64,000 nt of DNA. Source: Escherichia coli (GTDB taxonomy: Bacteria; Pseudomonadota; Gammaproteobacteria; Enterobacterales; Enterobacteriaceae). The notes beneath the pieces were generated by a model that worked only from the letters and a program-made list of their open reading frames with translations, was not told where the DNA came from and made no database searches. Position 1 is the first letter of the stretch; each line of letters begins with the position of its first letter. The position numbers and the translations under genes are program-made. The stretch lies in assembly GCF_022846255.1 (NCBI RefSeq), contig NZ_AP025682.1; one strand, 5' to 3'. Positions 46,965 through 47,140 of the stretch are shown here, in pieces.

Positions 46965-46987
46965 GCGTTTCTGATTCATTGATTAAA

Positions 46988-47019
46988 GGCCAGGCAGTAA
47001 CTTACTGACTGGCCTTTTT
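46988..47019. terminator. terminator after yfeX
   Basis: ggccaggcag...ctgactggcc hairpin followed by ttttt. Confidence 0.55.
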
Positions 47020-47139
47020 ATTACTGCTTTAACGCCGCATACACTTGATCAACTACTTTCTGTCAGAACAGGGTATTTTGTGGCGCTGACGCTACAGCTA
47101 ATAGCCAGCAGAGAAAGATAGAGCATTGTCCGTTTCATA
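46990..47139 (-). pseudogene. yfeW: remnant of yfeW (penicillin-binding protein 4B): short signal-peptide ORF that stops after about 29 codons, followed by what looks like a C-terminal fragment in another frame
   Basis: ATG about 2 nt after the murP stop encodes MKRTMLYLSLLAISCSVSATKYPVLTESS then stop; only ~177 bp separate murP and yfeX, where K-12 (from memory) has a ~1.3 kb gene. Confidence 0.5.
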
Positions 47140-47140
47140 A

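Follow-up and report, generated by a model that had tools for sequence, protein, structure and literature searches.

A remnant of pbp4B (yfeW) left by an 1184-bp deletion occupies the gap between murP and yfeX in an Escherichia coli genome

In Escherichia coli K-12 the pbp4B gene occupies third place in the murQ operon, and its expression is de-repressed when murR is mutated (PMC5061867, PMC9177960). The K-12 gene, annotated pbp4b (yfeW), is 1305 bp long and is located between murP and yfeX. In the stretch of E. coli DNA analysed here (64,000 nucleotides, hereafter the window) the interval between these two neighbours is only 176 bp (46965..47140), which raises the question of what became of the third gene. 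An earlier note on this DNA, made from its letters alone, had put the gap at ~177 bp and proposed that a gene of ~1.3 kb carried by K-12 had been reduced there by internal deletion; the gap is indeed small, with 176 bp as its exact size, and K-12 does carry a gene at this position. The genes on either side are intact, and yfeX is convergent with murP:

46065..46964, plus strand: yfeX, Dyp-type (porphyrinogen) peroxidase, intact, stop codon TAA (TIGR01413, 301.9 bits)
47141..48565, minus strand: murP, MurNAc PTS transporter EIIBC, intact, stop codon TGA at 47143..47141 (NF007152, 941 bits against a cut-off of 516)
48569..49465, minus strand: murQ, MurNAc-6-phosphate etherase, intact (TIGR00274, 509.7 bits against a cut-off of 302)

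With these family scores (509.7 bits for TIGR00274 and 941 bits for NF007152), both murQ and murP of the murQ operon are present and co-oriented, and murP is the last gene of the operon in the window since pbp4B has been lost. The annotation of yfeX and murP is identical in all close matches from the complete-genome collection.

The 176-bp gap itself contains the two ends of pbp4B, joined to one another. Reading away from murP, the following features can be assigned:

47139..47140, minus strand: spacer of 2 nt between the murP stop codon and the remnant ATG, from the alignment of alleles
47055..47138, minus strand: 5' arm of pbp4B, gene nt 1-84 (codons 1-28), from blastn, base-by-base mapping and the match to positions 1-28 of NF002968
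47049..47138, minus strand: 29-codon open reading frame MKRTMLYLSLLAISCSVSATKYPVLTESS, with ATG at 47138..47136 and TGA at 47051..47049
47055..47056, minus strand: deletion junction, a GT shared by both breakpoints, from base-by-base mapping against AR13438
47021..47056, minus strand: 3' arm of pbp4B, the final 36 nt of the gene, encoding VVDQVYAALKQ (11 codons) and the original TAA at 47023..47021

The 5' arm comprises the signal-peptide region plus 8-9 residues and is 94-95% identical by blastn to the intact alleles of AR13438 and K-12. The pbp4b gene of AR13438 is 1302 bp long and its flanks are nearer to the window than those of K-12; compared with this allele the two arms show 95% and 97% identity, and they occupy the orthologous site between murP and yfeX. 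Homology to both ends of the gene and an orthologous position together identify the gap as a pbp4B pseudogene. The 29-residue peptide matches the NCBIfam PBP4B model NF002968 at positions 1-28 only (E = 9e-6), and its score of 24.7 bits is well below the equivalog cut-off of 385 bits, whereas intact K-12 PBP4B scores 890 bits. When placed beside the K-12 protein, which has the N-terminus MKRTMLYLSLLAVSCSVSAAKYPVLTESSPEKAGF and the C-terminus WVVDQVYAALKQK, the remnant peptide is found to equal residues 1-28 except for two substitutions, and the out-of-frame tail corresponds to the K-12 C-terminus. The details that the earlier note had picked out are thus recovered: a minus-strand ATG about 2 nt after the murP stop codon opens a signal-peptide-like reading frame (29 codons) that runs into a stop, the peptide does match the N-terminus of YfeW, and the fragment reported as VDQVYAALKQ-stop in a shifted frame is present as VVDQVYAALKQ followed by two stops, out of frame with the remnant ATG.

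Set against pbp4B of K-12, the remnant occupies the same slot 3' of murP and is likewise convergent with yfeX; its first 84 nt and last 36 nt are homologous (94-97% identity) and the signal peptide is shared apart from the two substitutions, but 1184 bp of the gene body are absent. In RefSeq the stub is annotated by PGAP as a pseudogene, “hypothetical protein, incomplete, missing C-terminus”, in A36, 536, BL21 and others, and this annotation does not use the name pbp4b. The RefSeq pseudogenes ECD_RS26245 of BL21(DE3), ECP_RS27615 of 536 and AOY89_RS08645 of A36 represent the same allele, with an identical junction and the same 87-nt stub and stop as in the window. Differences between these partial pseudogenes and the window are limited to point changes and to the spacer after murP (2 vs 4 nt).

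The extent of the deletion can be read directly from the arms. The left arm ends at gene nt 84 and the right arm starts at gene nt 1267, with GT as their overlap, so that 1184 bp are missing (about gene nt 85-1268, codons 29-423 of 433). The earlier note had suggested a search for microhomology at the junction, and this dinucleotide is the only microhomology found there. Because 1184 is not a multiple of three the deletion shifts the frame, and the TGA that closes the open reading frame, seven bases past the junction, was created by this frameshift. We take PBP4B to have an AmpH / class C beta-lactamase fold; pattern and knowledge of the family single out S102NTK, Y167PN and H371TG of the intact AR13438 protein as candidates for its catalytic motifs. 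All three are located inside the deleted codons 29-423, and the SxxK, YxN and K/H-T/S-G motifs that mark PBP4B as an AmpH-type serine DD-peptidase are accordingly missing from the remnant. Since these motifs are deleted, the two ends are out of frame and the stub reaches only 24.7 bits, the remnant is unable to encode a penicillin-binding protein. The internal deletion of a ~1.3 kb gene, with both gene ends retained, and the consequent loss of a low-molecular-weight penicillin-binding protein from the murQP operon therefore stand as the earlier note had proposed them. We rejected the opposite polarity, a gain of pbp4B by K-12: as both ends of the gene remain here, the difference represents a loss in the lineage of the window.

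A simple course of events would account for this arrangement. A single illegitimate deletion between two sites sharing GT would have removed codons 29-423 and fused the signal-peptide codons out of frame to the final 36 nt of pbp4B, leaving murQ, murP and yfeX untouched. At most a 29-residue signal-peptide stub would then be translated, with no sign of constraint upon it. It is very probable that the gap is a dead remnant of pbp4B, derived from one old 1184-bp deletion that was later spread by recombination, and that its stub is without function. The gap allele is ordinary gene decay, already known in kind as the pseudogene of a characterised gene.

The earlier note had also called for a survey of E. 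coli genomes for the same allele, and we found it to be common. Among 5426 complete E. coli genomes, the 176-bp gap sequence matches a single spanning place in 1271 (~23%); in the remaining matching genomes the query splits into two halves under an annotated pbp4b. A longer query of 1301 bp returned 1274 genomes. A 60-nt probe centred on the junction recovered 1149 genomes at a coverage of at least 80%, and among the matches listed every full-length match has an ungapped record range of 60 nt. Three point differences close to the junction keep this probe from seeding on the BL21-type haplotype, for which a separate junction 30-mer was used, recovering 122 genomes. As 1149 and 122 sum to 1271, the same junction is present in every carrier.

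Carriers include 536, UM146, SE15, ATCC 25922, Nissle (EcN), ST131 and clone D i14, as well as BL21(DE3), REL606, E. coli C and ATCC 8739. We assume from general knowledge that 536, UM146, SE15, ATCC 25922, Nissle and the ST131 group belong to phylogroup B2 and that the B and C laboratory strains belong to phylogroup A. S88, IHE3034, APEC O1 and ATCC 11775, the type strain, each align to positions 36000..58000 of the window (22 kb) as one uninterrupted match, an indication that these strains may carry the deletion too. The junction sequence CAGAARGTAGTTGATCARGTRTATGC had no match in species-representative genomes, a weak negative at one genome per species, and the scan of these gave no evidence of the allele outside E. 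coli. A search of open-access papers and preprints found no paper describing the pbp4B or the murR deletion.

The survey also disposes of the reading that explains the gap by faulty assembly or sequencing, or by a recent deletion private to this strain. Its one attraction was that the gap had first been seen in a single window, and it is refuted by the occurrence of the same junction in 1271 independently finished genomes; we give it virtually no chance of being correct. A weightier question is whether the allele arose once or many times. We compared seven remnants (the window, A36, 536, GF43, AST205, BL21 and 0H18), in all of which the junction and the deletion length are identical. All seven also share a variant situated 10 nt beyond the junction on its 3' side: they read CAA, and the five ordinary intact alleles that were compared read CAG. 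When the ~4150 other genomes were probed for CAA in an intact gene, only three had it, SCU-301 and 2014C-3075 among them, and in these three alleles the right arm and 3' flank are identical to the A36 remnant (L011 and L012, with pbp4b at 539..1840). On this sequence evidence the intact CAA genomes look like candidates for the haplotype in which the deletion arose. The flanks of the remnants are by comparison diverse: over the final 390 nt of murP, 0H18 matches K-12 exactly and has 17 differences from the window, and at its yfeX end the window has the very sequence of the intact AR13438 allele.

The linkage of a rare CAA to the deletion, combined with very different flanking haplotypes, is the reason that we favour one origin followed by recombination, and a single old origin with later spread appears to be the best reading of these alleles. 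The deletion would have happened once, long ago; the allele would have come close to being universal in phylogroup B2 (phylogroups being assigned from general knowledge), and homologous recombination of short tracts would have moved it to other backgrounds such as E. coli B/BL21 and C. It might instead be argued that a hotspot gave rise to this deletion several times, in separate lineages, as the allele has at least four strongly divergent kinds of flanking haplotype, including the one whose murP end is identical to K-12, and as the junction in BL21 and 0H18 has one base different (GAAGGT vs GAAAGT), which an equal-length deletion shifted by 1 nt could produce. A microhomology of only 2 nt offers little to a hotspot, and a deletion length that is identical in all 1271 carriers, together with a CAA present in 7/7 sequenced remnants and in only three intact alleles, is difficult to reconcile with recurrence; moreover, E. 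coli is known to recombine in short tracts. These three features, microhomology, length and linked CAA, led us to reject recurrent hotspot deletion as the main explanation, and we regard it as highly unlikely.

Even less probable, in our estimation, is that the 29-codon reading frame is a working small gene, specifying a secreted peptide or serving as a coupling or stabilising element for the murQP mRNA. In its favour, its ATG, its signal-peptide-like sequence and its length are constant in the seven haplotypes examined. Its stop codon, on the other hand, is an accident of the frameshift, and the spacer that separates it from the murP stop varies from 2 to 4 nt. The codon changes confined to remnants (V13I, A20T, L25Q, T26A, T26I and S28G) are 6/6 nonsynonymous, a count made by eye on small numbers, whereas differences among intact alleles in the same codons are, also by eye, mostly synonymous. 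Scans of the whole window with Rfam and for tRNAs gave no match, so that no known RNA element explains the gap, and PGAP calls the stub a pseudogene. The pattern is that of a decaying pseudogene and the stub would seem to be without function.

The other end of the operon has been eroded as well. In K-12 the murR gene and the murQ-murP-pbp4B genes form a divergon (Jaeger and Mayer 2008, as outlined in PMC5061867 and PMC9177960). Upstream of murQ the window contains the following:

49556..49567, unstranded: murR deletion scar, in which 12 nt replace about 872 bp, from blastn and alignments against K-12, AR13438, SCU-301 and GF43
49568..49599, unstranded: decayed 3' end of murR, ~32 nt, adjoining the scar
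49745..50536, plus strand: ucpA, the next plus-strand gene after murQ (NF006080, 541 bits)

The ~872 bp that have been lost consist of 73 bp upstream of murR and most of the 858-bp murR gene, so the full murR gene and control region of the K-12 divergon are not present; 90 of the 163 nt of the intergenic region are left. Order and orientation of murQ and murP in the window are as in K-12, and so is the terminal hairpin that follows them, but both outer genes are absent, pbp4B through a deletion of 1184 bp and murR through a separate one of ~872 bp. The bare murQ-murP pair in the window is the result of these two deletions.

The murR-deletion allele is present in 1046 of the 5426 complete genomes (~19%), at 99.6-100% identity. 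Clone D i14 and A36 are among those that carry it, and in the annotation of clone D i14 murQ adjoins ucpA. BL21, GF43 and 0H18 possess the pbp4B deletion but have kept murR, from which it follows that loss of murR is narrower in distribution than loss of pbp4B; murR is also kept in AR13438 and SCU-301, whose pbp4b is intact. A consensus scan of K-12 predicts a murQ-oriented promoter with its -35 element (TTCACA) inside the stretch that is deleted and its -10 element (AATGAT) in the part that is retained. The loss of murR in ~19% of genomes hints that B2 strains control MurNAc catabolism in a different way. The two losses on either side of murQP in phylogroup B2 could be supposed to be adaptive instead of neutral decay, in that MurR-independent use of MurNAc would be gained, over-production of a DD-carboxypeptidase would be avoided, and the pbp4B deletion would in consequence be favoured and spread to phylogroup A and others; we consider this scenario improbable. 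The sequence beside the murR scar is only 91-93% identical to intact alleles, and this divergence suggests that the murR deletion may be old.

Transcription of the shortened operon may still end where that of the intact one would. One further feature is present in the gap:

46985..47017, unstranded: hairpin, an inverted repeat with 16-nt arms that are 94% complementary, between the convergent transcription units

The fold has a predicted energy of -25.3 kcal/mol for 71 nt (z = -5.3), and 0/200 shuffles were as good. On the plus strand, that is on the yfeX side, the hairpin is followed by TTTTTATT, a good T-run, and on the minus strand, on the murP side, by TTTAATCA, which is weak. The same hairpin is found 3' of intact pbp4b in AR13438, ST648 and SCU-301. 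A rule-based promoter and terminator scan of 46800..47300 called no site. The hairpin probably functions as a two-way intrinsic terminator, and the murQP transcript would then run ~120 nt past murP into what was formerly the pbp4B/yfeX hairpin. Where the earlier note had listed a hairpin terminator after the remnant, the strong hairpin is confirmed; it is shared with the convergent yfeX and has its better T-run on that side, and its role as a terminator is a prediction.

Going by the title of Vega and Ayala 2006 (cited in PMC5061867), PBP4B is a DD-carboxypeptidase dispensable for growth. About 20-30 molecules of it are made per generation, and it is one of eight class C PBPs (PMC4916385); it is also listed among the E. 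coli PBPs and in resistance-gene catalogues (PMC8179508, PMC11237492). Because the protein is non-essential and scarce in K-12, its loss is expected to be mild, and judging from K-12 knockouts the effect may be mild or neutral. About a quarter of finished E. coli genomes are nevertheless unable to make PBP4B, and the strains that lack it include the expression host BL21(DE3), the evolution strain REL606, Nissle 1917, ATCC 25922 and ST131. As PBP4B is absent from carriers, results obtained with K-12 on carboxypeptidase redundancy, beta-lactam targets and MurNAc recycling need checking in them. Nothing here alters the understanding of gene decay.

Several minor variations were observed among the alleles. 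All intact alleles, like the remnants of GF43, AST205, BL21 and 0H18, have a spacer of 4 nt (TAAT or TATC) after the murP stop codon, and the window, A36 and 536 have one of 2 nt (TT); this difference is a second small deletion within the decaying pbp4B locus. The loop of the hairpin (about 47000) reads AGTAAGTTACT in the window, one base shorter than in the other alleles examined (AGTTGTGTTACT or AGTAATGTTACT), and the stem has one variable position among alleles (CTGCC or CTGGC). In K-12-type intact alleles, which are also found in KH_005 and EM20-18-50, the yfeX-murP interval is 1548 bp, as opposed to 1363 bp in the AR13438 type. Almost all of the extra 185 bp lie in the pbp4b-yfeX spacer (K-12 record L001, 1562..1773). 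In K-12 this spacer contains a pair of inverted REP-like elements (about 1623..1720) with a copy of the terminator hairpin on either side, the two copies being separated by 182 bp. The pbp4b gene of K-12 is in addition longer by one codon (K) at its C-terminal end.

The affinities of the window as a whole are mixed. For positions 36000..58000 (22 kb) the best matches among complete genomes are the B2 strains 536, S88, APEC O1 and ATCC 11775; other strains are also among the best matches, and identity is only 98.4-98.5%. Some short segments nonetheless reach 99.5-100% identity with individual genomes: A36 across the yfeX-murP region, and many carriers of the murR deletion across the murQ-ucpA junction. 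These matches suggest a mosaic source strain, or one from a lineage that has no close finished relative. In EM20-18-50 (L010, 4614..5617) an ungapped comparison of the terminal 390 nt of murP gives 64-79 mismatches against every other allele, and the annotated murP coding sequence is short, at 1338 nt (187445..188782 of the record) compared with the usual 1425, which looks like an indel or truncation in that genome.
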